Positions 882 to 60,697 are shown, counted from the stretch's first letter. The stretch: 64,000 nucleotides of DNA from an uncultured delta proteobacterium (GCA_963827685.1 CAWHBU010000002.1:1088001-1152000), one strand, 5' to 3'. Numbers and translations: made by a program. The notes: generated from the letters alone by a model not told the origin.

Positions 882-1115
882 ATGGAAGGTAGAACTCCCT
901 TAAAAACTGACGGCTCCAGGTGTGCCCAATGTCTGAACTGCCAGCTCGTTTGCTCTATTACCCATGCAGGAATCTTTAACCCGGGGATGGCCAGGTTGAG
1001 AATTTCCGCAAGGGAGCCCCGCCAGATCGCATTCGAACCAGAATGCACTCAGTGTGGTCTATGCGCCCGCCATTGCCTTTACGGTGCGATTATCGCAGCG
1101 AAGGAGGAAGGATGA
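882..1115 (+). CDS. 2x[4Fe-4S] ferredoxin, AOR-associated
   Basis: CAQCLNCQLVC and CTQCGLCARHC motifs; ATGA overlap with the AOR start. Confidence 0.9.
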   Translation: MEGRTPLKTDGSRCAQCLNCQLVCSITHAGIFNPGMARLRISAREPRQIAFEPECTQCGLCARHCLYGAIIAAKEEG

Positions 1116-3010
1116 ACGGAGGATATGCAGGCCAGATTCTGCTGATCGACCTCTTTTCTGGCTCCTCAGAGAAACGACCCTTGGACCCAAGAAATTGTCA
1201 TCAATTTATCGGCGGCTTCGGTCTGAACAATCAGCTCTTTGCCGATTTGGCATTCGCAGGAAAAGATCCTTTCTCACCAGACAATCCGGTCGTCATCGGT
1301 GCCGGCCCCCTCATCGGCACGATGGCACCGGGAGCTTCTCGAATCATGGCCACAACGAAGTATCCTATGACGGGTGCAGTGGCTTCAGCTTCCGGATCCA
1401 TGACCTTCGGCGCGCAGATGAAGTGGGCCGGATACGACCACATCGTCGTCCGGGGACAATCGGACCGGCCGATTTATCTCTACATCCAGGACGAAACCCT
1501 GCAGGTTTGTGATGCCTCCGCGCTCTGGGGCAAGGATATTCTTCAAACAACCGAGGCTCTATGGGATAAGTATGGACCCTGCGGCATCATCGCCATCGGC
1601 CCAGCCGGTGAGAACCTTGTGAAATTTTCACTGGCCTTGGTGGATGGCACTGCAACGATCGGCCGCGGGGGTCTGGCTGCGGTCATGGGCTCCAAGCGAC
1701 TCAAGGCCATCGCGGTCAAAGGAACGAAGGGAATCCGAGTGGCCGACCCGAAAGGGTTCTTGAAAATAGTGGATGGGCTTTACAATAGGGCTAACAAATT
1801 CCCCCAGAGGGAAAATGTGGTCAAGTTTGGCATGATGTCCGGATGGCTGCCTGCGTTGGAGAGGGAGTTCCCTCACGCGCCAGAAAAGATTCAAATCCTT
1901 ACCCATCTCTATGGACCATCGGTTTATCAAAAATTCAAAAAGGCTCGAAGAGCCTGCCCTTCCTGTTTCATCGCAGATAAAGATGTCTTAGAGCTAAAAG
2001 AGAGTTGTGGCGAAACCTTCACCACTTACCCGACGAGCTTTGCCCTTATCCTACCCCTCTCCCATTATTTGTCTCAAATTTCCCCGGAGCATCTTCTTGA
2101 GATTTTCGACCAACTCAACCGTCAAGGAATAGACCTCTTCACCTTCGTGAAAATGGCCGATCTTCTGGTAAAGGTCTATGAAAAAGGAGGGATCGGGGAG
2201 AAACAAACCCAGGGGCTAGTTCCCACGAGGACATACGAATTTTTTCTTCAGCTTATCGATTTGATTTCCAGACGAGAGGGAATGGGTGATCTCATGGCCG
2301 AAGGGTGGAACAACATCCTGGAGGTCTTTGGGGAAACAGCCCGGAATGAAGTCGTCATTATCAAGGGACTGGAAACGATCTATGACCCCAGGGTCGCCGG
2401 GTTAGGCACGATGGAGTTTGAACAAGTCGTCTGCCCACGGGGCCCTACTTCAGCAACCTCTGGTTCACCCACGTATTTGCCCAATGCTCCGCTGGAAATG
2501 TTCGCCAGGCACGCCGAGCGCATGGGAGCTTCTAAAGAAGCGGTGGCCCGCATCTTACCCACGGCAGTGAACGTAAACATGGGGCGCCTTTCCCGGTACT
2601 CGGAAGACTGGTATGCTGTTCTCAGTTCCCTCGGTATTTGTAACCGTGCTCAGAACAATCGCTTCTACCATATTGGTCTTTGCAGCGAATTCTACGAGAA
2701 GGCAACGGGAATGGAGATGTCCCGCGAAGCGATGATGGAAGCTGCCGACCGTTCGTGGACCCTCCAACGGCTGCTCAACGCCCGCGAAGGGTTCTCAAAA
2801 AGAGATGATCTCATTCCCGACCAATGGTTCCAGCCACTGGAGTCGGAAGGAAAAAAGTTGCGAATGATGGACTACTTCGGGGGCAGACCATTGAGCCGGG
2901 AGGATCTATATCAGACCCTCGAGGACTATTACCAAGAAAGAGGTTGGGATCCAATCACAGGATATCCTTCCAAAGAGAAGCTCAAATCCTTGTGCCTGCC
3001 TACCACCTGA
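1112..3010 (+). CDS. aor: Aldehyde:ferredoxin oxidoreductase family (W/Mo-pterin) protein
   Basis: Starts MNGGYAGQIL after RBS AAGGAGG. Motifs GYDHIVVRG, IGPAGEN, GRGGLAAVMGSKRLKAI, SLGIC, YYQERGWD. Confidence 0.92.
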   Translation: MNGGYAGQILLIDLFSGSSEKRPLDPRNCHQFIGGFGLNNQLFADLAFAGKDPFSPDNPVVIGAGPLIGTMAPGASRIMATTKYPMTGAVASASGSMTFGAQMKWAGYDHIVVRGQSDRPIYLYIQDETLQVCDASALWGKDILQTTEALWDKYGPCGIIAIGPAGENLVKFSLALVDGTATIGRGGLAAVMGSKRLKAIAVKGTKGIRVADPKGFLKIVDGLYNRANKFPQRENVVKFGMMSGWLPALEREFPHAPEKIQILTHLYGPSVYQKFKKARRACPSCFIADKDVLELKESCGETFTTYPTSFALILPLSHYLSQISPEHLLEIFDQLNRQGIDLFTFVKMADLLVKVYEKGGIGEKQTQGLVPTRTYEFFLQLIDLISRREGMGDLMAEGWNNILEVFGETARNEVVIIKGLETIYDPRVAGLGTMEFEQVVCPRGPTSATSGSPTYLPNAPLEMFARHAERMGASKEAVARILPTAVNVNMGRLSRYSEDWYAVLSSLGICNRAQNNRFYHIGLCSEFYEKATGMEMSREAMMEAADRSWTLQRLLNAREGFSKRDDLIPDQWFQPLESEGKKLRMMDYFGGRPLSREDLYQTLEDYYQERGWDPITGYPSKEKLKSLCLPTT

Positions 3011-3318: not shown

Positions 3319-4176
3319 TTAAGTTTCATTAAGGAGCTTTTCATACTGCTCTGGGCTCCTGTACCCTAATGCCGAATGACTCCTCTGACGATTATAAAAC
3401 ACTTCCACGTACTCAAAAATACTAAGCCTCGCCTCCAGCCTTGAACGGTACCGCTCACCATGGACCAACTCCGTCTTGAGCGTGCCAAAGAAAGACTCCA
3501 CATAGGCATTATCATAACAATTGCCACTTCTGCTCATACTAGGAGTCATGCCGTATTCTCTTAAAAGCTCCTGATAGGCATAGCTTGCATACTGCCTGCC
3601 TCGATCAGAATGGTGGATCAACCCTTCAGAGGGGCTTTGCCTGCCCACCGCGTCCCTGAGCGCAGCAGAAGCTAGCTCCTGAGAGAGCTTATCGCTCATG
3701 GACAGCCCAATGATCTTTCTGCTTTTCACATTCATCACTGCTGCCACATAGAGCCATCCCTCAGAAGTGGGCACAAACGTAATATCAGATGCCCATACCC
3801 CCTCTGTCTGCCTCTGGTCAATCAGTAAGTTTGCAGCCAAGGCATAATGATGCCGTGAATCGGTAGTCCGCCTGAATCTCTTTTTCTTCACTTCTGCCCA
3901 TATGGAGTGCTCTTTCATGATCCTGGCTACCCGGTTCTTCCCACATCTAAGACCCTGCTTATTGAGCTCCGCTGCGATCCGCGGACTCCCATAGAGCCTT
4001 CTGCTTTGAGTGTGGATCTCCCGTATGTGCCCCAGCAACTCCTCATCGTCTTTCTGACGTGTGCTCGGTTGACGCGTCTTCCACGCATAATAACCACTTC
4101 TGGATACCTTCAACACTTCACTCATACTCCTTATCTTGTAGGTCTCTCTGTGCTCTTCTATCAACCGATACTTCAT
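3319..4176 (-). CDS. IS3 OrfB (rve DDE transposase)
   Basis: WASDIT, HHSDRGRQY, SRSGNCYDNAYVESFF, YNRQRSHSALGY motifs. Confidence 0.95.
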   Translation of the reverse strand: MKYRLIEEHRETYKIRSMSEVLKVSRSGYYAWKTRQPSTRQKDDEELLGHIREIHTQSRRLYGSPRIAAELNKQGLRCGKNRVARIMKEHSIWAEVKKKRFRRTTDSRHHYALAANLLIDQRQTEGVWASDITFVPTSEGWLYVAAVMNVKSRKIIGLSMSDKLSQELASAALRDAVGRQSPSEGLIHHSDRGRQYASYAYQELLREYGMTPSMSRSGNCYDNAYVESFFGTLKTELVHGERYRSRLEARLSIFEYVEVFYNRQRSHSALGYRSPEQYEKLLNET

Positions 4177-4475
4177 CTGTTTCGTTTGGAGAATACGGCC
4201 AAGGCTTTTTTTAAAATGTCCCTCTCTTCCTTCACCTTTTCTAATTCCTTCCGGAGCCCCTTTATTTCCGCTTCCTCTGGCGTTACACGGCCCTTCCCTA
4301 CGAAGGCTTTATCCCCTTTAGCTAAGAACCTCCTCCTCCATAGATGAAGAAGATTGGGATGGATATCAAGCTCTCGGGCCACCTTGCCTACCGGCATCCC
4401 TTTCTCTGTGACCAACTGCACTGCATCTCGTTTGAACTCACGGCTGAAATGACGATTCTTTTCCCCCATACGCAC
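4173..4475 (-). CDS. IS3 OrfA (HTH), fused to OrfB by -1 frameshift
   Basis: FSREFKRDAV...VARELDI HTH; A7G slippery site in ILKKA. Confidence 0.93.
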   Translation of the reverse strand: MRMGEKNRHFSREFKRDAVQLVTEKGMPVGKVARELDIHPNLLHLWRRRFLAKGDKAFVGKGRVTPEEAEIKGLRKELEKVKEERDILKKALAVFSKRNR

Positions 4476-4812: not shown

Positions 4813-5115
4813 CTACCATTCAAAATTATAGTAACCCAGAGCTACATCTAAGAGCGCCCGCTGCGGCCCCCCCAGCCACAGTTGGAGTATCTTGACATCC
4901 CGCAGGTATTTCTCCACGTGATAATCAAAGGAATATCCGTATGAACCCATCAATTCCATGGTTTTGTGCGCAACCCAGATAGCTACGTTACAAACATATG
5001 CTTTTGCTCCAGAGCATTTCGAGAGCATAAATGGCTCTCCTGGACGGCCATAGAGCGCCACATTCTTGGACATCTTGAACACGTGCATGGCGTAAGCCCT
5101 TGCCGACTCAATCCT
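4813..5115 (-). pseudogene. Acyl-CoA dehydrogenase C-terminal fragment
   Basis: AKAYVCNVA...MELMGSYGYSFDYHVEKYLRDVKILQLWLGG is the ACAD C-terminal signature; the N-terminal domains are absent. Confidence 0.8.
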
Positions 5116-5184
5116 GTCAACCGGACGGTCAATAAACGTGGCTCTCGGTGAGCAGCAACGTTTAGGCTGAAGGAAGGAGGACTT

Positions 5185-5421
5185 ATGAAACAATGTTACC
5201 TATGCGGGGCAAGCTCAGATATACAGGAAGAATTCGACGGTTTCTTCGTCAAATGCACAGGCTCTTGTGGTCCATACATCATCACTCGGATAGCGCTGGG
5301 CGACCTCACCAAAATTTTTGGAAGGAAACAAAGCGTCATCGACGGGGTCAAGGTACTGCGGGAACAAGACAAGGTGCGTCGGATCAGAATTAGTCACGAT
5401 TCAGAATCATTCGTTCCCTGA
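5185..5421 (+). CDS. Small hypothetical protein, zinc-ribbon-like (CxxC...CxxxC)
   Basis: Strong RBS AAGGAGG; CYLCG and CTGSCG motifs. Confidence 0.6.
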   Translation: MKQCYLCGASSDIQEEFDGFFVKCTGSCGPYIITRIALGDLTKIFGRKQSVIDGVKVLREQDKVRRIRISHDSESFVP

Positions 5422-5639: not shown

Positions 5640-5668
5640 TTGACACCATGTTCCTAATCTAATACACT
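5640..5668 (+). promoter_or_regulatory. sigma70-type promoter of amrS copy 1
   Basis: TTGACA-17 bp-TACACT. Confidence 0.55.
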
Positions 5669-5718
5669 TCAATTAGTAGAAAAGTCTCTCGAGGCCTGAT
5701 ATGAAGGAGAATATGGCT

Positions 5719-6927
5719 ATGAGCGAACTTTGCACGAATCATTCCACCTTATTCAGTAAAGGAAGTGGGATATGGGGTGAGCACATTCCAGATCCGAAAC
5801 TGACAAAACGGGAGTTCTTGAAGTTTTGCGGGGCGAGTTTCTGTGTGCTCTCGGCCTCTCAACTCTTCGGTTTTCCGGAAACCTTGCGGGCGCAAACTGC
5901 TCAAAAGGGTCTCATTAAGACAAAGCTCTCTCCCTATTTCACTTCCCTGAGTGGAGGAGAAATCCAGTGTGAACTGTGCCCTAAGCGGTGTCATGTTTCC
6001 AAGGGGAAAAGAGGTTTTTGCAGAGTGCGAGAGAACCGGGATGGAAAATATTACAGTCTGGTCTACGGAAACCCCTGCGCAGTTCATTTGGACCCCATTG
6101 AGAAGAAGCCTTTTTTCCATGTACTTCCTGCCACTACTTCATTCTCCCTTGCAACGGCGGGGTGCAATTTCCAGTGCAAGTATTGCCAGAATTGGGAGAT
6201 TTCCCAAGCCTCCCCAGAAGAAGTGTATAGTTATGAGGTGCCCCCGGAAATTGTGGTGCAAAAGGCTAAGGAGATGGGTTGCCATTCTGTCGCTTACACT
6301 TATGTGGAACCTATGATCTTTTATGAGTACATGTGGGACATTGGACAACTTCTAAAGAAAGAGGGCCTTCTGAGCGTCTGCCATTCTAATGGCTTCATCA
6401 ATCCCGATCCACTTAGAAACCTGTGCAAGGTAATAGATGCAGCCAATATTGATCTGAAGGGGTTCACGGAGGCGTTTTATCGTGAAATGTGTAGTGGCGG
6501 GTTGGCTCCGGTGCTTGAAACCTTGAAGACCCTTAAGAAGGAGAAGATCCACCTGGAGATTACAAACCTCATCATCCCCACACAGAATGATGATATGTCG
6601 GTAGTGAGGGAAATGTGCCTTTGGGTGAAGAAAGAGTTGGGTGCAGATACTCCCGTACATTTCTCAAGGTTCTTTCCCCTGTACAAACTCAAAACCCTTC
6701 CCCCAACACCGGTTTCGACACTGGAGAAGGCCCGGACAGTGGCTTTATCTTCTGGCCTAGAATATGTGTATATTGGAAACGTACCAGGCCACGAGGGTGA
6801 AAACACTTTCTGCCCGGCATGCAAAAAAATGATCATCCAGCGGACAGGATTTATGGTTGGAGAGGTACATCTGAAAGGAGGGAAGTGCGGGTATTGCGGA
6901 AGACCGATACCGGGTATTTGGACGTGA
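5719..6927 (+). CDS. amrS: AmmeMemoRadiSam system radical SAM enzyme, copy 1, with Tat-like leader
   Basis: CELCPKRC, DPIEKKP, GCNFQCKYCQNWEISQ (CxxxCxxC), AYTYVEP, NIDLKGF, HFSRFFP, YIGNV, C-terminal Zn ribbon. Start 5719 chosen from RBS spacing and alignment to copy 2 (track start 5701). Confidence 0.93.
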   Translation: MSELCTNHSTLFSKGSGIWGEHIPDPKLTKREFLKFCGASFCVLSASQLFGFPETLRAQTAQKGLIKTKLSPYFTSLSGGEIQCELCPKRCHVSKGKRGFCRVRENRDGKYYSLVYGNPCAVHLDPIEKKPFFHVLPATTSFSLATAGCNFQCKYCQNWEISQASPEEVYSYEVPPEIVVQKAKEMGCHSVAYTYVEPMIFYEYMWDIGQLLKKEGLLSVCHSNGFINPDPLRNLCKVIDAANIDLKGFTEAFYREMCSGGLAPVLETLKTLKKEKIHLEITNLIIPTQNDDMSVVREMCLWVKKELGADTPVHFSRFFPLYKLKTLPPTPVSTLEKARTVALSSGLEYVYIGNVPGHEGENTFCPACKKMIIQRTGFMVGEVHLKGGKCGYCGRPIPGIWT

Positions 6928-7262
6928 GTACGAAAGGATCGAAAATAAATATCGAGAAAGGTTCTCAGGGAAAAATGGATAAGTTTTTACAATTTTATAT
7001 AGATTGATGTTCTTTAATTAACATCCTAAAAAACGGGTTTAAGTAAGGAATTCCATATGCAAATTTTCTGGAAGCAGGTCATCTATTGATGTTTTCATGA
7101 TCTCTAAAAGATCATTAGTAATGAAAGTAATGAAGGTCATTTTTTTTCCAATTATGGTTTAATGGCTGCCCCAAATATTCACTTCCAACAGTAAATAGGG
7201 CTTGGTATCAAAAAGAGGGAGTGCCATTTCCCTCATCCACTCTGACCCCTGGAGGTATAACG

Positions 7263-8756
7263 ATGGTCACCTGGAAACATATGCTCCTTCTTCTCCTGCT
7301 GCTCCTCTTTGTCTCTGTCTGCAATTCGCAGAATCGCTCCGAGGACCGTCAGCCCGCCGTCGCGGGCCAGTTCTATCCGGGCAGACCGGACGAGCTGAAA
7401 CGGATGCTCGACGAGCTGTTCTCCAAAGCCGTCGCACGCAAGGCCCTGCCGGATGTCGTTGCGATCATTGTCCCGCACGCAGGGTATGTCTACTCGGGGG
7501 AAGTTGCGGCTTCAGGGTTCAACCAGATCGATCCCGATAAGGTGTACGACAACGTCTTCGTCCTCGGGCCGAGCCACCATGTAGGGTTCGAAGGAGCTTC
7601 GGTCTATTGCTCTGGAAATTTCATTACTCCGCTCGGTACGGTGGAGGTGAATCGTGAATTGGGAGAGGAACTGATAAAAAAGAACACAATGTTCACGCGG
7701 CGGACCGATGCTCACGCCTACGAACACAGCGTCGAAGTGGAGATACCGTTTCTCCAGCATCAGCTGAAGAAGCACTTCCGGATCGTGCCGATCGTTCTTG
7801 GTGCCAACAGGCCGGAAACCTGTCGGAAGATCGGCGAGGTACTTCGGCCCTTCCTGAATGAGAAGAATCTCTTCGTGATCAGCACGGATTTCTCGCACTA
7901 TCCTAGGTACGACAACGCGGTCACCGTCGACAAGGCGACCGCCGACGCGATTGTTTCCAATTCGCCGGACAACCTGATAAAAACCGTGCGAAGGTATGAG
8001 GAGTCCGGCATGCCCAACCTCGCAACCTGCCTCTGCGGTGTGTCAGGGGTGCTGACGCTCCTGTCCATGACCTCACCGAGTGCGGATGTCATTTACCATC
8101 CAATCCAGTACAAGAATTCGGGCGATGTCCCGGTCGGCGACAAGGAACACGTGGTCGGTTACTATGCCATCGTAGTCACGAAGCAGGCGAAGCCGGACAA
8201 GGCCGCGTTTAAACTCGACTCAAAGGAAAAAACAGCGTTGCTGGCGATCGCGCGGCGCACGGTCGAAGGTTACATCCGCACACGCTCGGTTCCGGAGGCT
8301 GATCCTGCCATGCTGAGTGACGCACTCAAGACGCCGTGCGGGGCCTTTGTCACTCTCAATAAGCGCGGCATGCTGCGAGGGTGCATCGGCAGGTTCGATG
8401 CTAGTGAGCCGCTATACAAGGTCGTGCAGGAGATGGCGGTTGCGTCGGCGACGCAGGATTACCGGTTCAGGTCTGTAGAGGAAGGCGAGGTAAAGGATTT
8501 GAAGATCGAGATTTCGGTCCTGACGCCGATGAGAAAGATTAGCTCGATCGATGAATTCCAACTTGGCAAACATGGCATCTACATCCGGAAGGGATTCCGT
8601 TCGGGGACATTCCTCCCGCAGGTCGCACAGGAGACCGGATGGACGAAGGAAGAGTTCCTTGGCCATTGTGCGCAGGACAAAGCGGGAATAGGGTGGGAGG
8701 GATGGAAGGACGCAGACCTGTACGTGTACGAAGCACTTGTCTTCGGTGAAAAGTAA
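7263..8756 (+). CDS. amrB: AmmeMemoRadiSam protein B (Memo)-protein A (AMMECR1) fusion with signal peptide
   Basis: Memo motifs AVAGQFYP, PHAGYVYSG, GPSHH, EHSVEV, STDFSHY; AMMECR1 motifs LRGCIG, EISVLT, TFLPQVA. RBS GGAGG before ATG 7263; hydrophobic leader MVTWKHMLLLLLLLLFVSVCNS. Confidence 0.93.
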   Translation: MVTWKHMLLLLLLLLFVSVCNSQNRSEDRQPAVAGQFYPGRPDELKRMLDELFSKAVARKALPDVVAIIVPHAGYVYSGEVAASGFNQIDPDKVYDNVFVLGPSHHVGFEGASVYCSGNFITPLGTVEVNRELGEELIKKNTMFTRRTDAHAYEHSVEVEIPFLQHQLKKHFRIVPIVLGANRPETCRKIGEVLRPFLNEKNLFVISTDFSHYPRYDNAVTVDKATADAIVSNSPDNLIKTVRRYEESGMPNLATCLCGVSGVLTLLSMTSPSADVIYHPIQYKNSGDVPVGDKEHVVGYYAIVVTKQAKPDKAAFKLDSKEKTALLAIARRTVEGYIRTRSVPEADPAMLSDALKTPCGAFVTLNKRGMLRGCIGRFDASEPLYKVVQEMAVASATQDYRFRSVEEGEVKDLKIEISVLTPMRKISSIDEFQLGKHGIYIRKGFRSGTFLPQVAQETGWTKEEFLGHCAQDKAGIGWEGWKDADLYVYEALVFGEK

Positions 8757-9251: not shown

Positions 9252-10356
9252 ATACAAACGCATTAAGTAATGTTACATAGCCTACGAATCTTTTGACAAG
9301 ACCATGAGCGAGTTGTTTTACAAACGACAGACCAAAGATTATCAAGGTTTTCAAACCAACGGTTGGTGGTGGATTCATAGCGAACACTGCGCCAAATCCG
9401 TTCTTGCACGTTTAATCCCGGTTGATACGGGGGTAAATATTCGATATGGAGCCTCGGATGTTTTTTAAGAAATTGTTCGATGGGATCGCCTCTGTGCCAG
9501 CGGGCCCTGTCGACATAAAGCCAAATGGTATATTCTTTAAACCTTCCATAGAGGTGGCGCAAAAGTTTGAGAAACCCTTCTCTATCCCCCCGTTTTGTCT
9601 GAATCATGCCATAGCGTCCAAGCAAAGGATTGACCCACCCAGAGATATTCAAACGGATACGATGCTGGCTGGTCGTGGGAATCTTAAGACGCTTTCCTTT
9701 TTTCGCCCAGCCCCGGCTAAGCCTGGGGTGCATCGTAAAGCCTGTCTCATCCTGGAATACAATTGTCTCTTTTGGCCCCAGGGACTCAAGTTTTTTTTAA
9801 AGCCCGCTGGAACTTTCGGGCTTCTTGGCTTTGTGCTTGAAGATAAGAATAACTCGCTCTCTTTAACCGATAACCCAAATGATGCATCCAGCGTTGGGCT
9901 TGCCGCACCTTCAGGTTTATCCCGAAAGACCGTTTCAGATGAATCGCAACCGTTGGCCCATCCCATTGAGTCCGGTTTAAACCAAATTCCCGCGGAGACT
10001 TCTCTAAGTGTCCCTCCAGCACCCTTTGAATCTTTGTCTCTAACCGTGGAGGCCTTCCCGATCTTGGCTTGGATTTTAAGAACTCTAAGCCGTCTTTGTT
10101 CACCCCGTGAATCCATCGGCTTAAACTCATCCGGGTCAACCCTAACACCTCGGTTATCCATCCCGGACGTTGCCCTTCAAGCACCAGGAGTAAGGCGGCT
10201 ATCTTTATGCCTATCCAAGCCCCTGATATTTGTTCGGCTAATGCTAATAAACGCTCTTTATTGGCCTCTTTATGCTCTAAGATTAATGTGGGATTTTTCA
10301 TGCCCACATATTAACATAAATAAACTGTTATGTCACTTTATTTAGGACGTTTGTAT
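9252..10356 (-). mobile_element. IS630-family insertion sequence
   Basis: Imperfect IRs ATACAAACG...ACATA at both ends; TA duplicated at 9250-9251 and 10357-10358. Confidence 0.92.
9263..10307 (-). CDS. IS630 transposase, two ORFs joined across an A8 run
   Basis: HTH ORF 10307-9786 (GRPPRL); the shifted frame reads KLESLGPKETIVFQDETGF...DRARWH...LPPYQPGLNVQERIW (DDE triad). Confidence 0.9.
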
Positions 10357-24287: not shown

Positions 24288-25478
24288 TCACGTCCAAATA
24301 CCGGGGATAGGCTTTCCACAGTACTTGCACTTTCCAGCCTTCAAGTTGATTTCTCCAACCATATATCCTGTCCGCTGGATGACCATTTTTTTGCACTTTG
24401 GGCAAAAGGTGTTTTCGCCCTCGTGACCCGGTACATTCCCAACATAGACATATTCAAGACCCACAGATAAGGCTACTGCCCGGGCTTTATCCAATGTCGA
24501 AACTGGGGTTGGGGGAAGGGTCTTGAGCTTGTACAAAGGATAGAACCGCGAGAAATGGACAGGAGTATCCGCTCCCAATTCCTTTTTTATCCAGAGGCAC
24601 ATCTCTTTTATCACTGACATCTCATCATTCTTTGTAGGAATAACGAGGTTTGTGATCTCCAGGTGGACTTTTTTCCGCCTCAGCGTCTTCAATGTCTCAA
24701 GCACCGGAGAAAGTTCCCCACTACACAATTCGTGATAAAAATTCTCCGTAAATCCCTTCAAATCGATATTCGCTGCATCTAACACGTTGCACAGATTTTT
24801 GAGAGGGTCTGGATTGATAAAACCATTCGAGTGGTAGACATTCAGAAGTCCTGACTTCTTAGCGAGCGTACCAATGTCTATCATGTATTCATAAAAGATG
24901 GTCGGCTCCACATAGGTGTAAGCAACCGAACGGGCTCCTATCTCTTTCGCCCTCTTCACCGTCAACTCTGGTGGGACCTCGTAACTATCGACACCTTCCG
25001 GAGCGGCCTGGGAGATCTCCCAATTCTGGCAGAACTTGCACTGGAAATTGCATCCTGCTGTGGCGAGGGAGAAGGAAGTTGTGCCAGGAAGGAGATGAAA
25101 AAAAGGTTTCTTCTCAATCGGGTCTAAATGGACCGCACAGGGATTTCCATAGACCAGGCTGTAATATTTTCCATCCCGGTTTTCGCGCACCCTGCAAATG
25201 CCTCTCTTTCCCTTAGCCACGCGACAGCGATGAGGGCACAGTTCACACCGGATTTCTCCTCCATCGAGCGAAGTGAAATAGGGGGACAGCTTTGTCTTGA
25301 TGAGCCCCTTCTTAGCCATTTGTGCACGGGAGGTATCCGGAAGGCCGAGGAGATATCCAGCGGACAGTAGACAGAAACTTGTTCCACAGAGTCGAAGAAA
25401 ATCACGTTTTGAAAGTTGGAGATCGGGCCCAGGTTGGTCCCACCTCGATCTTCTATTGCTGATAATCGGTTCACTCAT
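24288..25478 (-). CDS. amrS: AmmeMemoRadiSam system radical SAM enzyme, copy 2, with Tat-like leader
   Basis: Close paralogue of 5719-6927; GCNFQCKFCQNWEISQ; leader SKRDFLRLCG...SRA-Q. Confidence 0.93.
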   Translation of the reverse strand: MSEPIISNRRSRWDQPGPDLQLSKRDFLRLCGTSFCLLSAGYLLGLPDTSRAQMAKKGLIKTKLSPYFTSLDGGEIRCELCPHRCRVAKGKRGICRVRENRDGKYYSLVYGNPCAVHLDPIEKKPFFHLLPGTTSFSLATAGCNFQCKFCQNWEISQAAPEGVDSYEVPPELTVKRAKEIGARSVAYTYVEPTIFYEYMIDIGTLAKKSGLLNVYHSNGFINPDPLKNLCNVLDAANIDLKGFTENFYHELCSGELSPVLETLKTLRRKKVHLEITNLVIPTKNDEMSVIKEMCLWIKKELGADTPVHFSRFYPLYKLKTLPPTPVSTLDKARAVALSVGLEYVYVGNVPGHEGENTFCPKCKKMVIQRTGYMVGEINLKAGKCKYCGKPIPGIWT

Positions 25479-26198: not shown

Positions 26199-26969
26199 AT
26201 GTTTTTGCCAATACTTCTTAGCTTCCTATTATTATTTTCGGTTCTCCCCGCTGGCTATTCCTATGGATTTGAAGCAAGGGGGCAAGAGTGCTCTAAGTGT
26301 CACACGCTTCAAAAAGAGGAAGCGAAGGATCTTCTCAAAAATACCATCCCCAATGTTGTCATTCTTGATATCCAATTAAGTCCTGCAAAGGGTTTCTGGG
26401 AGGTTTACGTAGAATCCATGGGCCGGAAGGGGTTGATCTATGTTGATTTCCGTAAGAAACATTTCTTCTCCGGGGCATTGATATCCATTGCTGAAAAGAA
26501 AAACCTTACTCAAGAGCGGCTCACGGACCTTAATAAGATCGATGTATCGCAAATACCCCTTGAGAATGCTCTGGTGATGGGCGATCAAAAGGCCAGAATT
26601 CGGGTCGTTCTCTTTACTGACCCTGACTGTCCCTACTGTGCCAAACTTCATCAGGAGATGAAGAAGATCATCGAAGAGAGGAAAGAGATCGCCTTTTATA
26701 TTAAGCTGTTTCCCCTGGTGAAGATCCATCCCGGAGCCTATGAAAAAGCAAAGGCGATCGTGTGTGAGAAATCGTTACCCTTTCTTGAGGATGCGTTTGG
26801 AGGGAAACCGTTGCCAAAACCAAAGTGCGAGACAACCGTCGTTGATGAAAATATAAGACTGGCTGAAAAACTGGGTATTTCAAGCTTGCCTGCCTTGGTC
26901 TTTCCTGACGGAAGGGTTATCTCGGGATACAAAGATGCTAAAACCCTACTCACCTTGATTGACAAATAA
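26199..26969 (+). CDS. dsbC: DsbC-family thiol:disulfide isomerase with N-terminal CxxCH
   Basis: Signal peptide, CSKCH, FTDPDCPYC, ISSLPALVFPDG. Confidence 0.88.
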   Translation: MFLPILLSFLLLFSVLPAGYSYGFEARGQECSKCHTLQKEEAKDLLKNTIPNVVILDIQLSPAKGFWEVYVESMGRKGLIYVDFRKKHFFSGALISIAEKKNLTQERLTDLNKIDVSQIPLENALVMGDQKARIRVVLFTDPDCPYCAKLHQEMKKIIEERKEIAFYIKLFPLVKIHPGAYEKAKAIVCEKSLPFLEDAFGGKPLPKPKCETTVVDENIRLAEKLGISSLPALVFPDGRVISGYKDAKTLLTLIDK

Positions 26970-55636: not shown

Positions 55637-55810
55637 ATGGAAAAGGACGAAGCCCATAGGATCATCGATCGGATGCCACCAAACGCTACCTGGGATGATC
55701 TCATGCGGGAAATTTACGTCCGGGAGGCGGTTGAGCGCGGGTTGGCCGACAGCAAAGCAGGCCGGACTAAGGATGTGAAAGAGGTCCGTGCGAAGTTATG
55801 TGTTTTATAA
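55637..55810 (+). CDS. Small antitoxin-like protein (possibly 3'-truncated)
   Basis: MEKDEAHRIIDRMPPNATWDDLMREIYVREAVERGLADSKAGR resembles antitoxins paired with RelE/ParE toxins; no toxin gene follows. Confidence 0.55.
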   Translation: MEKDEAHRIIDRMPPNATWDDLMREIYVREAVERGLADSKAGRTKDVKEVRAKLCVL

Positions 55811-57443
55811 GAATCCTTTAGGTTTCTTGGGTTGGGGTTTTTCTTCAGGGAGGATATTCTCCTTTTCCTTCTTCTTATCTTCGACCTTGAATCCAGATTC
55901 CTCTATGATAAATTTATCGTCGCCAGGATCGGGTTTAAAGTCTAACTCAAGCTTCTTCGCTTCCTTAATATAGGAGCCATCTTTCAGACGAATCTCTCCG
56001 TTCGGCATGACGACAATAGCAGAATCTCCTTGGACAGGACATCTCTGTTCGCAGAATCCACAGCCATTGCATTTTGAAGCGACAACCACAGGACGTCGAT
56101 ATCCTTCTACAGGACGAAAGACAATGGCGTTATATGGACAGATTTCATCACAGATCAAACAGATCTTATTCTGAGCCCAGACCAGGCACATCTCTTTCCG
56201 TAAAACAGCCGTACCCACCTTGGCATGGGTTTTTTCTTCGAGTGATAGAGAACGGATTGCTTGTGTGGGACAAACCTTTCCGCAGACATTGCAATTCTGA
56301 TCGCATGGAGCCAAACGCGGGTCCATCTTCGGCGTCCACAGACCTGAGAATCCAGACTCCCAAAGACAGGGTTGTAGCGTATTTGTCAAGCAAGACTTCA
56401 TGCACTCCCCGCAGCGGATACAAGTGCGTAAGAACTCAGTCTCGGGAATCGCTCCAGGTGGCCGGATGAGTGGATGTTTACTCTGCTTGAGGGCGAAAGG
56501 AGTCCGCATGGCCAGAAACCCAACCCCCAACCCTCCTGCCAAGGAATAGAGGAATCCTCTGCGAGAAAAGTCGACCTGCGAATATTCTCCACCTAAGGAG
56601 AGAGAAGTTGGAAAGGTGATAGCATGTTGTGGACAAACTTTAGCGCACGCCCTGCATTGAATGCACTCTGGAAGACGAGTTCCTCTTGGATCCTCAGCGA
56701 CAGCTCCCATTGGACAGGTCTTCTGGCATTTCATACATTCATTACAATCTTCACTTATTCGGCGCTTGAAAAGCCCAAGAGGTGAGATCAAGCTGAGAAA
56801 AGCTCCCAATGGGCAGAGATAGCGGCACCAAAAGCGCGGGACGAGACGATTAAGAAAGATGATCCCTCCAAAGATCAGGAATGTGATGGCCGTCATATAG
56901 TAGACAGACTGAAAATAGTGTTGGTGAGATAAGGTGACCCACCCAAGGGCTCCAAACACAGGACGTAGCAGATCTAAGAACAGATTAATCAAGGTAGTTA
57001 CCAGAGGATAGATGAAGAAGGTATAAAAGCGTGTGAGAAGGGACATCGGGTCCATGAGGAAGGCTAAGGAGAGACCGGTCAGCGCAGCAACTATAAAAAT
57101 GACGAGTAAAAAGTATTTCAATCTTCGAAGGCTGGTTTCAGTCTTCAGGCCCAAACGTTTTTTCTTTCGAAAAAAAAAGAAAGTCTAAAAAATCAATCGA
57201 GGCCCCCATTGGACAAACATAGGCGCAAAAGAACCTGCCGATAACGAGCGTAGCCCCGATGGTGGTGAGGGCCCAAAAAGCTCGACCAATGATCTCTCTT
57301 GCCGCGAAAACAGCGTTCAGCCCCAATAGAGGATCTAAACGCAAATAAATATCTGCTGGTAGCCAATTGGGTAGCTTGTAGGTGGCAAAGATAAATAAAG
57401 TAGAGAAAAGAAGAAGAGAGAGGGCCTGGATGAGAGTCCTCAT
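55805..57443 (-). CDS. NapH/MauN-type membrane Fe-S protein fused to a NapG/MauM-like domain; frameshifted at a T9 run
   Basis: GRFFCAYVCPMG, RFWCRYLCPLG, IRPPGA, CIRCGECMKSC; frame break at 57170-57178. Confidence 0.88.
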
Positions 57444-58366
57444 ACCTTTTCCTTAAAAATTTTGAGTTGATCGATGTCGATCTTTCCAAGACCCTTTTGA
57501 TGAGCGACAAGCAGATGCTCAACCTGTCGACCCTTGAAGTTCTGCCCATACCACGGGACAACACTCACCCCATAAGAATCCACGGCAACAGGATCAATGC
57601 CAGCGATGATGAGATTGGGTTTCTTAACCTCTCCAGGCCCACCCGGTCCCCCAGAGACCAAAGCCCGAGTAGCATCAAGGATGGTAAGCTGAGGTTTGAT
57701 GACAGTCCCTAAATCGACTATAGCTTGATTAATGTTGTATTGAGAGTGGAAACTCTCTCTATCCCAAATGAGACCCATGAGTCCCTTCATGCCCATGCTC
57801 ACACCTGTTGCAGAATGAGACTTAGCCACAGGAATACTGATCAAAACAGAGTTGTCCAAAACCTCCTTAATGACCTCTACACGTTCCAACACCTTTCCTT
57901 GAGGAATCTTGATTTCGCGGAAGAACTTTCTTTCCTGAAGAGTGAGAACATGGACACCGGAGATGTTTTTACATGCATCGCGAATCCCTGCCCTTTCAAG
58001 GCAGAGTTCTGCTCTGTGCAGCGTATGATCTAAGACTAAGACTTGCGAAGCCCCTGCTTCGATACAAGCCTGAGCCACCGTTGCGACAACTAAGGGATGG
58101 GTGGTAGCGGCGAATTCAGGCGTTCTGGAAAAGGACATATTGGGTTTAAGGACGACACGCTGCCCTCTTTTGACAAATTGGGAAATTCCCCCTAAAGCCT
58201 CAAGGGCTTTTCTTGTCGCTGCGACGGGCTCACCGGAAATGACCGCTAAATCATACTCTTCTTTTCCGAATGAACGAGAAGGACTGCCGACAATGCCCAA
58301 AGCCATTCCTGCGGCAGCGGTTTTAAGAAATTTACGTCGTGTAATTTTTTGATCGTTTTTATCCAC
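57440..58366 (-). CDS. DUF362 Fe-S protein with Tat signal
   Basis: TRRKFLK; VVLKPN, TTHP, KSH, MKGLMG, DPVAVD motifs; GTG start with RBS. Confidence 0.88.
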   Translation of the reverse strand: MDKNDQKITRRKFLKTAAAGMALGIVGSPSRSFGKEEYDLAVISGEPVAATRKALEALGGISQFVKRGQRVVLKPNMSFSRTPEFAATTHPLVVATVAQACIEAGASQVLVLDHTLHRAELCLERAGIRDACKNISGVHVLTLQERKFFREIKIPQGKVLERVEVIKEVLDNSVLISIPVAKSHSATGVSMGMKGLMGLIWDRESFHSQYNINQAIVDLGTVIKPQLTILDATRALVSGGPGGPGEVKKPNLIIAGIDPVAVDSYGVSVVPWYGQNFKGRQVEHLLVAHQKGLGKIDIDQLKIFKEKV

Positions 58367-58427
58367 CAGTGCCCCCTTTTCCGTTATCAATCAATCCCTC
58401 CTAGCCTCCCTTTAGCAATAGGAATTT

Positions 58428-58506: not shown

Positions 58507-59712
58507 TCATGCAATAAATTCCATCGGAACCTCCTTTAAACGGACTACATCTCGAATCTTACCAGAAACGTTAAATCCACTGGAACATTTCACTGCGCAA
58601 TCAGAACAATCCTCACAAACCCTGTCGGGAAGATTCAGGGACAATATGAGATCTTGAGCATGTGCAAGATTACGATAGCCATAAGTATACATGTAAGCTC
58701 GCATTAGATCAGGGATAGGTAGGTGCTCCGGGCATTGTCCCAAACATTGCCTGCAACCCTGGCAATATAATCCCGAAACAGATGCCACTTTTTCCAAATC
58801 CTTCTTTTCGGGACCGGTGAGCGTGGGATTTTCCGCCACTGATAAATCAATATTCATCTCTTCAAATGTCGTGAATCCAGGGACGATGGTATGCACGTTC
58901 GGATCCTGTAAGACCCATTTGAGAGCCGCAGCGCTATTTTTCACAGTGGGCGTCTGTCTCGACCCGCCTCGGATTGCTTTCATCCCAACAATACCAAGAC
59001 CAGCCTGAGACGCTCTGGCGATAGCATTCCTCATCTCAGCATAATGCTTCTGTTGAAAATTATAGGATGTTAAAATCACATCGTAGATTTTCGAATCAAC
59101 GGCTGCATGAATGACTTCTGGCTCATTCATGTGAGTGGTGATCCCCACGAAACGAGCCTTCCCCTCCTTCTTAACCTTTTCCAATGCTTTCAAAATCGGT
59201 TCATACAGGGCCGATTCTCTCTTCCATACGTTGTGATGGTAATAAATGTCTACATACTCCAGCCCCAGATTTTTAAGGCTGATGTCCACTTTTTTTAGAA
59301 AGGCTTCTTCCGTTGCCTCTTCTGTATAGAGACCTGTTGTTTGATTGTTTGGGAGGCGCGCTTTGGTGGCGATGACGTAAGATTCCCGGGGACGTCCCTT
59401 GAGCACCTCTCCAATCATTCCTTCATTTTGACCTCTTTGATACGTTTGAGCGGTGTCCAGCATCACCATACCGGAATCGAGCGCCACCCGGACAAGGGCT
59501 GAATTATCGGTATTCATCACTCCCATGCTGATCACTGGAACCTTGATCCCCGTCTTTCCAAGGGTGCGATAAACAAATTTCCTCTCCCTCCCCTTCGCTT
59601 CAACAACCCTTAACTCCTGCTTCATATCGATCTTAGGAAGAAAAAATAATCCGCCAAACCCAGCGAGGGTTGATTTCATGAAATCTCTTCTACCCATCAA
59701 TTTTTTAAGCAT
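58507..59712 (-). CDS. Aldo/keto reductase with Tat signal and C-terminal Fe-S motif
   Basis: GRRDFMK; YRTLGKTG, LDTAQTY, IATK, GITTH; CQGCRQCLGQCP...CEDCSDCAVKC. Confidence 0.9.
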   Translation of the reverse strand: MLKKLMGRRDFMKSTLAGFGGLFFLPKIDMKQELRVVEAKGRERKFVYRTLGKTGIKVPVISMGVMNTDNSALVRVALDSGMVMLDTAQTYQRGQNEGMIGEVLKGRPRESYVIATKARLPNNQTTGLYTEEATEEAFLKKVDISLKNLGLEYVDIYYHHNVWKRESALYEPILKALEKVKKEGKARFVGITTHMNEPEVIHAAVDSKIYDVILTSYNFQQKHYAEMRNAIARASQAGLGIVGMKAIRGGSRQTPTVKNSAAALKWVLQDPNVHTIVPGFTTFEEMNIDLSVAENPTLTGPEKKDLEKVASVSGLYCQGCRQCLGQCPEHLPIPDLMRAYMYTYGYRNLAHAQDLILSLNLPDRVCEDCSDCAVKCSSGFNVSGKIRDVVRLKEVPMEFIA

Positions 59713-59746
59713 GGTCCCTCCTTCCCCAAAAGCAAAGCGCAGAGCT

Positions 59747-59795
59747 CCCCTCACCCTTCCCCTCTCCCCTGAGGGGAGAGGGTGGGGTGAGGGGT
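59747..59795. repeat. CCCCTCACCC...GGGGTGAGGGG palindrome
   Basis: Long GC-rich stem between operon genes; related CCTCCCTTT units at 42779-42842 and 58392-58425. Confidence 0.65.
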
Positions 59796-59797
59796 TT

Positions 59798-60697
59798 CTA
59801 TTTCTTCTGCTGACTCTTCGTTAATTCTTCCTCAAAAAGCTTTAGGTATTTTGAACGAAGAGACGTATCGCTAACATTAAGTATACCCCAGATGTATTTT
59901 CCTTTCCAGTACAGGTCAATTTCTCCATGATAAGGGTCAGGCAACGTGTAACGTCCTTCTGCAACATCCCTGGCAGGACTACCGGTTTGCTGAAGATATT
60001 TCTGAATCATCTCTTTGCAGTCGTTCTCTTCAACACCTTCGATGACAAAAAGTTTAAATTTCGTCCCGGAAAGCCCATAATCCGCAGTAAAGGCAGAATG
60101 TAAAAACGAATAACCCAGGAAATTTTTGTTAATAAATTTTTCGGAATTTTTTATTTTTCTCTCTTCGGGGAAAGCGGATAAAATGGGCGGGAGCGTTCCT
60201 TTCTCTCCTAAATTTTCGGCCACCTTTTTTGCAAAGGTTAGTAAAATCTCCTGATCTTCAGCGCCAGTATTGTAACTGTTTATCTTCACATAGTATGAAC
60301 CGGTCAAAAAGTTAAGGACATTGTTTTCAATATACCCTTGAGCCCCAACATTAATAAAGTTCGCATCAGGAAGACGCTCCTGACTGTAGATTCCGAAAGC
60401 ATGGATGGGGGTTTTATGTCGATAGACATCAACGATGACAGAGGCTTTCCTTTCATTCGAGTATTCTCCAACTCTCAATTCCTCAAAATCGTACATCAAA
60501 TAAAGATCCGCTGCTCCATCGATATATTCATAAAGAGTTTTGGGTGAAAAAGCTTGGATTTCCCCTGGCTGTTTCCAACCAGTTACCTCAGGAAAGATGA
60601 AGGTTTTCCAATCGGAACTAAATACCCACGCCGGACGGGATACTCCCGCCATTAAAGAAACGAACAATAAACAACCGATAAGGTATCCCTTTCTCAT
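59798..60697 (-). CDS. Exported hypothetical protein (DUF6599-like)
   Basis: Signal peptide; LYEYIDGAADLYLMYDF, AFGIYSQER motifs. Confidence 0.75.
   Translation of the reverse strand: MRKGYLIGCLLFVSLMAGVSRPAWVFSSDWKTFIFPEVTGWKQPGEIQAFSPKTLYEYIDGAADLYLMYDFEELRVGEYSNERKASVIVDVYRHKTPIHAFGIYSQERLPDANFINVGAQGYIENNVLNFLTGSYYVKINSYNTGAEDQEILLTFAKKVAENLGEKGTLPPILSAFPEERKIKNSEKFINKNFLGYSFLHSAFTADYGLSGTKFKLFVIEGVEENDCKEMIQKYLQQTGSPARDVAEGRYTLPDPYHGEIDLYWKGKYIWGILNVSDTSLRSKYLKLFEEELTKSQQKK

Follow-up and report, generated by a model that had tools for sequence, protein, structure and literature searches.

Radical S-adenosylmethionine (SAM) enzymes are, to our knowledge, regarded as strictly cytoplasmic: they need SAM and a low-potential reductant, and their clusters are oxygen-sensitive. 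The AmmeMemoRadiSam system joins one such enzyme, AmrS, with Memo (AmrB) and AMMECR1 (AmrA) domains, and canonical AmrS is leaderless. Here we describe a 64,000-nucleotide stretch of DNA (the window) from the genome of an uncultured delta proteobacterium (GCA_963827685.1 CAWHBU010000002.1:1088001-1152000; the source genome), in which positions 5719..8756 encode an AmrS, AmrS-1, and a fusion of Memo and AMMECR1, AmrBA-1, each with a leader of export type. With canonical AmmeMemoRadiSam this cassette shares matches well above the cut-offs of TIGR04337, TIGR04336 and TIGR04335, and Cys motifs that are invariant in leader-bearing and leaderless AmrS. It differs in the 58-residue leader of twin-arginine translocation (Tat) type on AmrS-1, in the fusion of Memo and AMMECR1 behind a signal peptide, and in its recurrent neighbours, which are membrane redox proteins and a SpeE-like protein. 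The families themselves are known; particular to this case are a lysine-arginine (KR) variant of the twin-arginine (RR) motif, two AmrS with export signals and a leaderless one in a single genome, a cassette flanked by insertion sequence (IS) elements, and a pair of Tat-signal DUF362 and NapH-like genes in the same window.

Within the literature searched, which did not extend to the key comparative study of Burroughs et al. 2019, we found no radical SAM enzyme among described Tat cargoes and no description of an exported AmrS. A passage of PMC10924467 names a radical SAM gene merely as a neighbour, and one of PMC13128918 uses Tat signals as tools; the title and abstract of the latter indicate that the radical SAM enzyme there matures an effector which is exported afterwards.

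The features of the cassette are as follows.
5719..6927, plus strand: AmrS-1, AmmeMemoRadiSam radical SAM enzyme with N-terminal leader, 402 residues (TIGR04337, PF04055).
5719..5892, plus strand: predicted Tat-type signal peptide of AmrS-1, KR variant (from motif, conservation among homologues, and pN/pS, the ratio of nonsynonymous to synonymous differences).
7263..8756, plus strand: AmrBA-1, Memo (AmrB) and AMMECR1 (AmrA) fusion with signal peptide, 497 residues (TIGR04336, TIGR04335, PF01875, PF01871).
7263..7328, plus strand: Sec-type signal peptide (general secretory pathway) of AmrBA-1, MVTWKHMLLLLLLLLFVSVC followed by NS and, after the cut, Q.

AmrS-1 occupies an open reading frame (ORF) of 408 residues at 5701..6927 on the plus strand, whose best start is the ATG at 5719; a Shine-Dalgarno (SD) sequence, AAGGAG, lies at 5704-5709, and the ATG starts 9 nucleotides further on. 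A promoter-like site precedes the gene (5640-5668) and is weak, six sites being found versus 4.5 expected. TIGR04337 is matched at 377.8 bits (cut-off 220) over model positions 3-333 of 349, and PF04055 at 70.4 bits; the former alignment opens at residue 79 of the 408-residue ORF, leaving approximately the first 78 residues outside the family core. The radical SAM motif CX3CX2C corresponds to C149, C153 and C156, invariant in a 50-sequence alignment, and further Cys quartets lie near the N- and C-termini. A haem-type CxxCH motif is absent, the sequence being C-P-K-R-C-H with an H that varies among homologues. By sequence, the nearest solved structure is the pyruvate formate-lyase activating enzyme (PFL-AE; 3C8F/3CB8, E 4.5e-07, residues 146-297), which is cytoplasmic and uses flavodoxin. 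AmrS-1 matches the glycyl-radical activase models PFLA, NrdG and YjjW weakly and far under their cut-offs, and it differs from the activases in its additional Cys quartets.

The AmrS leader that an earlier note had read from this DNA (TKREFLK, a hydrophobic stretch, then L-R-A before Q) is indeed present from the ATG at 5719. It consists of an n-region of residues 1-28, the motif T29-K-R-E-F-L-K35 (nucleotides 5803..5823), a 17-residue hydrophobic h-region (F36-F52) and a c-region, P-E-T-L-R-A, with predicted cleavage between A58 and Q59. The stretch from the leader to the first conserved Cys contains no in-frame ATG; GTG and TTG codons occur inside the leader. Among six homologous genes (the two AmrS copies of the window and those of loci L016, L017, L156 and L161), all 15 pairs gave pN/pS values of 0.19-0.42 over 31 signal codons, with synonymous sites near saturation, which points to purifying selection on the leader. 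Given the low pN/pS, the upstream SD sequence and the lack of an internal in-frame ATG, the objection that the true start lies downstream of the leader, foreseen in the earlier note, fails.

The leader has the layout of a Tat signal: a long and variable n-region, S/T-x-R-x-F-L-K, a weakly hydrophobic core, a basic residue in the c-region and an A-x-A-like site, on a protein that, like other Tat cargo, must fold first around its Fe-S clusters. Six of the seven positions of the S/T-R-R-x-F-L-K consensus fit; the first arginine is replaced by lysine, a variant that occurs naturally in TtrB of Salmonella. The pattern [ST]-[KR]-R-x-F-L is kept in 119 of 120 close AmrS homologues (116 KR, in the form [ST]-K-R-[ED]-F-L, and 3 RR), the remaining one being an N-terminally cut fragment, and the [AG]-Q site is kept in all 120; the n-region ahead of the motif is free in both length and sequence. 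Locus L161, from the window's phylum, carries the same leader with RR, T-R-R-E-F-L-E, and reads ITRREFLELCGTSFCALS...VRAQ. Canonical signals such as EDRRRFLK, TGRREFLA, YTRREFLQ and ISRREFLK are also found among the top 150 sequences representing clusters at 50% identity, and an automatic pattern recorded 28 RR and 1 KR in 133 filtered representative AmrS cores (50% clustering).

Phylogenetic placement is consistent with this picture. On a FastTree phylogeny of 218 AmrS cores, with leaders excluded, the distinction between leader and no leader requires 12 changes, versus a shuffled mean of about 71. Both AmrS copies of the window fall in a well-supported (starred) clade of 12 rows, comprising six RR, five KR and one fragment, whereas a third, leaderless AmrS of the source genome falls in a clade of 48 rows that is leaderless throughout. 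The second copy, whose core is 82% identical to that of AmrS-1 and which is its nearest neighbour on the tree, is the following.
24288..25478, minus strand: AmrS-2, leader-bearing paralogue, 396 residues, with S-K-R-D-F-L-R at nucleotides 25392..25412 and a predicted cut after S-R-A52, before Q53.
By sequence and phylogeny, the AmrS leader and the canonical RR Tat signals are homologous, and the tree position together with the mixed RR/KR clade marks KR as a derived state of such a signal. The best 11-residue hydrophobicity of the AmrS-1 leader, 1.84, equals the median of 53 RR/KR leaders, compared with a median of 2.92 for the signals of the partner proteins (n=34), which is the usual contrast between Tat and Sec signals. 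A strict consensus pattern retrieved 26 ORFs from the source genome, 24 with RR and two with KR, the latter two being the AmrS genes of the window.

AmrBA-1 lies in an ORF at 7221..8756 with its best start at ATG 7263, preceded by GGAGG at 7251-7255, and matches TIGR04336 at 254.5 bits (cut-off 26) and TIGR04335 at 165.2 bits (cut-off 99), as well as Pfam PF01875 and PF01871; its closest solved relatives are MEMO1 (3BCZ/7KQ8) and the archaeal AMMECR1-like structures 1ZQ7/1VAJ. The protein opens with MVTWKHMLLLLLLLLFVSVC-NSQ, a signal whose best 11-residue hydrophobicity reaches 3.57, and no in-frame ATG follows it. The separate export leader that the earlier note had ascribed to the fusion is therefore present, and a hydrophobic leader occurs in 116 of 120 close homologues, the others being three N-terminally cut sequences and one with a short N-terminus. 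Neither the AmrS motif (119 of 120) nor the fusion's leader is thus peculiar to the window's genes, contrary to the doubt that the leaders might not be conserved. Cys20 of AmrBA-1 stands behind a lipobox-like V-S-V, with V at position -1 in comparison with the lipobox [LVI][ASTVI][GAS]C. A strict lipobox is found in 53 of the 120 homologues; 34, AmrBA-1 included, show a Cys preceded by a non-canonical -1 residue, and another 29 combine a hydrophobic leader with the lack of a matching Cys pattern.

A pattern scan of species-representative genomes yielded 80 loci from many phyla, whose AmrS N-termini were classed by eye from the printed sequences, since automatic labels were wrong in several cases: L018, L020, L053, L057 and L078 had been called as having no leader or a transmembrane (TM) segment despite a KR or RR motif, RR and KR were swapped in L027 and L092, and the fusion of L095 was called signal-bearing though leaderless from its ATG. 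The resulting classes comprise 39 RR, 12 KR, 4 split, 19 strongly hydrophobic non-RR and 6 leaderless AmrS, such that an RR or KR signal is found in 55 of the 80 loci, including the 4 in which it is split onto a small ORF. A Memo-AMMECR1 fusion with a visible N-terminus was present in 34 of the 80 loci and in the window. Wherever the neighbouring AmrS bears a leader, the fusion does too (33/33; 32 clear and L088 weak), and a good lipobox is common among these fusions. L095 is a leaderless pair of AmrS and fusion, and in L063 a leaderless AmrS stands with a weakly signalled fusion. In L032, L054, L061 and L094, all four of the apparently leaderless cases, a small ORF was identified between a truncated AmrS and a signal-bearing fusion, and these mini-ORFs encode an RR signal and the first beta-strand, which the truncated AmrS lacks (e.g. 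MLTRREFFRFFVIGGILSLFG...KEAMFWRKVD). This arrangement resembles the Tat hitchhiker export of signal-less subunits known for HybC with HybO and DmsB with DmsA. As to the co-occurrence that the earlier note had asked about, leader-bearing AmrS and signal-bearing AmrB/A do go together, and the AmrS copies of the window fall inside the starred RR/KR group. Leader-bearing AmmeMemoRadiSam is a large, multi-phylum clade and is not unique to the window.

The leaderless form follows a different pattern. It was found in 144 of 151 sampled genomes of the window's phylum, where the genomes are related and not independent, so that counts from this sample overstate the case. The 30 best leaderless-type genes all begin at a MKEAMLY-like core, and no Memo or AMMECR1 gene was found within 1.5 kb of them. 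Twenty extra AmrS paralogues from the same phylum comprised 16 RR, 1 KR and 3 leaderless proteins, the KR one coming from the family to which the window's organism belongs. The source genome itself has, besides the two copies of the window, a leaderless AmrS of 346 residues at C5:42441-43481 (L003 1501..2541, minus strand), likewise with no adjoining Memo or AMMECR1 gene; this combination suggests that cytoplasmic and exported versions would run side by side.

A second Memo-AMMECR1 fusion of the source genome, AmrBA-2 (C2:418424-419929; L007 1390..2898), also has a signal-like N-terminus, MRRCIYLIFLISFFLLAGSTTIAQ. An internal Met of this protein falls exactly at the start of its leaderless orthologues, and such a Met lies ahead of the Memo domain in 15/15 signal-bearing relatives; the gene could have two starts, yielding an exported product from one and a cytoplasmic product from the other. 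The source genome showed no AMMECR1 gene without a leader. Half of the 30 best relatives of AmrBA-2 (15) have a signal-like N-terminus and half (15) do not. Two or more AmrS matches were present in all 15 genomes with a signal-bearing gene of this type, as opposed to at most one in 14 of the 15 genomes with a leaderless one.

The source genome encodes three TatC and ten TatA/E matches above cut-off. Across genomes, TatC was found in 13 of 15 with an RR AmrS and 5 of 5 with a KR AmrS, versus 2 of 10 with a non-RR hydrophobic leader (Fisher p = 0.0003), a comparison that is confounded by kinship and made on genomes of which several are small and whose completeness is not established. The non-RR leaders resemble Sec signals (median hydrophobicity 3.01) and belong mostly to small genomes of Omnitrophota type (loci L024, L026, L029-L031, L033, L037, L038, L041, L042, L045, L048, L055, L060, L072, L073, L076, L084 and L093). 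Together, these results establish the existence of the signals, their conservation, their homology to RR signals, their joint occurrence on both partners and their association with the presence of TatC.

All-against-all clustering of the ORFs in 81 AmrS loci was used to define recurrent neighbour families. The most frequent member described here, found in 45 of the 81 loci, is a SpeE-like protein of about 770 residues and 14 TM helices, in which a domain of spermidine-synthase type stands between two helix blocks; it matches PF01564 and NF037959, 'fused MFS/spermidine synthase' (62.3 bits). The copy in the source genome, which lies on the window's contig but outside the window (C2:551826-554133), has 23 Lys and Arg residues in inside loops versus 5 in outside loops, and from hydropathy and the positive-inside rule its SpeE domain is predicted to face outward. 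A Tat-signal DUF362 protein was identified in 15 of the loci, a CcdA/DsbD-like DsbD_2 membrane protein in at least 9, and a secreted DUF6599 protein in 4.

Fusions would likewise place AmrS behind extracytoplasmic modules. For example, AmrS follows a single TM helix and an FMN_bind domain (binding flavin mononucleotide, FMN) with an S-G-A-T motif of flavinylation type in proteins P0262 and P0266, while NapH-like modules are fused to AmrS in P0242, P0245 and P0265 and lie near it in L054, L070, L077 and L094. In P0242 and P0245 a basic stretch and then one TM helix separate the cytoplasmic NapH-like CX3CP motif from AmrS. DsbD_2 is fused to AmrS in P0253, P0257 and P0265, and a beta-propeller or CBM11 domain in P0246 and P0252. 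Triple fusions of the AmmeMemoRadiSam parts (P0255, P0270 and P0291) suggest that AmrS, Memo and AMMECR1 work as a unit.

NapH-like/FMN and DsbD modules have been described as components of ApbE-flavinylated extracytosolic electron transfer (Meheust et al. 2021, eLife, PMC8238504), and according to that study the client reactions of most NapH-like systems remain unknown. The modules fused to or near leader-bearing AmrS correspond to those described there, namely proteins of DsbD type and PF12801 NapH-like proteins whose N-terminus carries an FMN-binding domain. The terms Memo, AMMECR1 and S-adenosyl do not occur in its main text, and its Supplementary file 1 may list such clusters. The window's own NapH-like gene differs from these systems in having no FMN-binding domain and in its pairing with a Tat-signal DUF362 gene, directly downstream of which its two ORFs lie.
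57440..58390, minus strand: Tat(RR)-signal DUF362 protein, ITRRKFLKTAAAG (PF04015, 161.5 bits; TAT_signal, 19.5 bits against a cut-off of 22.7).
55805..57443, minus strand: NapH-like membrane polyferredoxin in two overlapping ORFs (57138..57443 and 55805..57154), with PF12801 Fer4_5 in both and 4Fe-4S dicluster domains.
This DUF362 gene is the best match in the source genome of the hidden Markov model (HMM) of the DUF362 cluster. Each of the NapH-like ORFs has a Fer4_5 CX3CP unit; their division could be genuine or could come from a frameshift or an error of assembly.

Further genes near the AmrS copies and the DUF362 gene, and the surroundings of the cassette, are listed next.
26199..26969, plus strand: DsbC-like thiol:disulfide isomerase with signal peptide (DsbC_N and thioredoxin-like domains).
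58507..59754, minus strand: aldo/keto reductase with a 4Fe-4S dicluster tail and a canonical Tat signal, GRRDFMKSTLAG.
59798..60697, minus strand: DUF6599 secreted protein.
1043..3010, plus strand: aldehyde:ferredoxin oxidoreductase family gene (AFOR_N and AFOR_C), upstream of the IS3 element.
3319..4475, minus strand: IS3-family element (HTH_Tnp_1 ORF and rve ORF), upstream of the cassette.
4813..5193, minus strand: truncated acyl-CoA dehydrogenase, C-terminal fragment.
9263..10307, minus strand: IS630-like element (helix-turn-helix ORF and DDE_3 ORF), downstream of the cassette.
The DsbC-like protein has C-S-K-C-H near its N-terminus and is encoded 0.7 kb from AmrS-2. The aldo/keto reductase has a near-identical second copy in the genome at C2:1196670, and the DUF6599 protein recurs near loci with leader-bearing AmrS or DUF362 in distant phyla (L050, L059 and L077). 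Outside its own lineage, AmrBA-1 is closest to proteins of Bacteroidota and Ignavibacteriota, at about 65% identity; this relationship and the bracketing of the cassette by IS elements and a truncated gene are both compatible with mobile DNA having brought in or rearranged the cassette.

Another radical SAM family, which is PflX-like and weakly similar to activases, was found with a canonical RR Tat signal, METTRRDFIKRTLLLGG. Its gene is convergent to a KR or RR AmrS in the window's closest relatives (L016; L017, 5270..6322, minus strand; L018; L020, 8188..9390, minus strand), and the source genome's homologue on C1 appears leaderless. An AmrS homologue, P0300, was also found to contain an intein, including a LAGLIDADG homing endonuclease domain, just past the radical SAM cluster region.

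From these observations we infer a route of export and a location of activity. AmrS would receive its Fe-S clusters, and possibly SAM, in the cytoplasm and fold there; it would then cross the membrane folded through Tat, using the KR signal, and be cut after L-R-A58. The Memo-AMMECR1 fusion would cross unfolded through Sec and may be held by a lipid anchor at Cys20, and the two proteins would act jointly on an envelope substrate, on the outside of the cytoplasmic membrane. Electrons could be supplied in the window by the NapH-like polyferredoxin together with the Tat-signal DUF362 protein, and in relatives by FMN-binding, NapH-like or DsbD-like modules; the SpeE-like 14-helix protein, with its outward domain of SAM-binding type, is the best candidate for a link to SAM. 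Export itself, and hence an extracytoplasmic version of AmmeMemoRadiSam formed by AmrS-1 and AmrBA-1, we regard as probable. The fuller proposal, in which radical SAM chemistry continues outside on an envelope substrate, with electrons passing through membrane conduits and SAM provided by way of the SpeE-like domain, is put forward tentatively. The earlier idea that all three domains are exported has thus gained conserved and co-occurring export signals, RR homologues, a link to TatC and the retention of split signals, with export as such still a matter of interpretation, and its suggestion of a protein cofactor as substrate found no support in this analysis.

A number of points weigh against export of an active AmrS. 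Lysine replaces the first arginine, within the source genome only in the two AmrS genes, and the KR signal could be weakened or vestigial. When the two AmrS of the window, L161 and 22 RR relatives were scanned with the Pfam model TAT_signal (PF10518), none of the 25 reached the cut-off of 22.7 bits and neither window AmrS matched at E<=1; the three sub-threshold matches, all of RR relatives, scored 12.9-17.5 bits, and this short model gives only 19.5 bits to the textbook TRRKFLK signal on the window's DUF362 protein. An NCBIfam scan of AmrS-1 also returned no Tat-signal family (the model of which we take to be TIGR01409). A strongly hydrophobic, non-RR leader stands on AmrS in 19 of the 80 loci, and TatC was not detected in 8 of the 10 such genomes tested; as we know of no precedent for an Fe-S enzyme crossing by Sec, the leader may, at least in these lineages, not stand for the export of active enzyme. 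We also know of no SAM and no low-potential electron pool outside the cytoplasm, both of which a radical SAM enzyme needs, and the supply routes proposed above are guesses from gene context; the SpeE-like gene, moreover, lies about 540 kb from the cassette in the source genome. Finally, the lipobox of AmrBA-1 has the non-canonical V at -1, and the cassette, standing between IS elements and beside a truncated gene, may be a recent and poorly integrated acquisition.

Some of these points would be accommodated if the AmrS leader were a membrane tether or a vestigial Tat-like motif, with AmrS facing the cytoplasm and only Memo-AMMECR1 outside or in the membrane; the nitrate reductase NarG, for comparison, faces the cytoplasm and keeps a remnant twin-arginine motif. 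The KR form of 116 of the 120 close homologues, which in the source genome is restricted to AmrS, the silence of the curated Tat HMMs, the non-RR leaders of 19 of the 80 loci, mostly in genomes without detectable TatC, and the need of the chemistry for SAM and reductant all agree with such a tether, as does the triple fusion P0255, in which an N-terminal helix is followed by KKNEK and the positive-inside rule would hold the enzyme domains inside. A plain tether, however, has no use for the S/T-R-R-x-F-L-K consensus, which is nevertheless kept in relatives, nor for a signal that is retained on a separate mini-ORF in all four split loci or an A-x-A-like [AG]-Q site that all 120 homologues keep. 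With a signal on 33 of 33 partners, it would also put the halves of one system, elsewhere fused, on opposite sides of the membrane, and in the NapH-like fusions one helix parts the cytoplasmic CX3CP motif from AmrS. We therefore hold a cytoplasm-facing AmrS to be unlikely.

An exported pair might instead perform its radical step just once, before or during export, in a single turnover with SAM bound in the cytoplasm, for example placing a radical or a modification on AmrS, on a bound cofactor or, once export is complete, on the partner, so that no SAM-consuming chemistry would go on outside. This would remove the problem of SAM supply, and it suits both the similarity of AmrS to activating enzymes of PFL-AE type, which act once per target molecule, and the capacity of Tat to carry folded, cofactor-loaded proteins; in the source genome, furthermore, the candidate SAM module is unlinked to the cassette. 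On the other hand, the repeated FMN_bind, NapH-like and DsbD_2 conduits and the SpeE-like protein of 45 of the 81 loci exceed what such an enzyme would need, and modification of the partner before export is excluded because the partner passes Sec unfolded. Single turnover, too, appears improbable to us, with perhaps a slightly stronger claim than the tether. An error of gene calling, whereby both proteins start downstream and are ordinary cytoplasmic AmrS and AmrB/A, might be suspected from the GTG and TTG codons in the AmrS leader, from canonical AmrS proteins beginning at the core, and from the internal Met that AmrBA-2-like genes elsewhere keep at the leaderless start. It is largely refuted by the absence of an in-frame ATG from the leader to the first conserved Cys in AmrS-1 and after the signal in AmrBA-1, the strong SD sequences before the upstream ATGs, pN/pS values of 0.19-0.42 at near-saturated synonymous sites, and the open frame and motif of 119 of the 120 homologues, and we consider it very improbable indeed.

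If export of the AmmeMemoRadiSam components is borne out, the view of radical SAM enzymes as confined to the cytoplasm would fall to a large, conserved branch of many phyla in which each component bears an export signal, the more so as this branch brings membrane electron conduits and a possible SAM module of its own; a supply of SAM and electrons to the periplasm would be implied. If the fuller proposal also holds, radical SAM chemistry would take place outside in many anaerobic bacteria, with the same genome running a separate cytoplasmic copy, and the mini-ORF forms would represent the first strand-complementing Tat hitchhikers. The KR variant offers a clean testable prediction, in the comparison of KR with RR and KK. 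The human homologues of Memo and AMMECR1 are linked to disease and biochemically unexplained; an exported system would provide the first real handle on the function of both families, as a substrate in the envelope would be easier to seek than 'some nucleic acid'.

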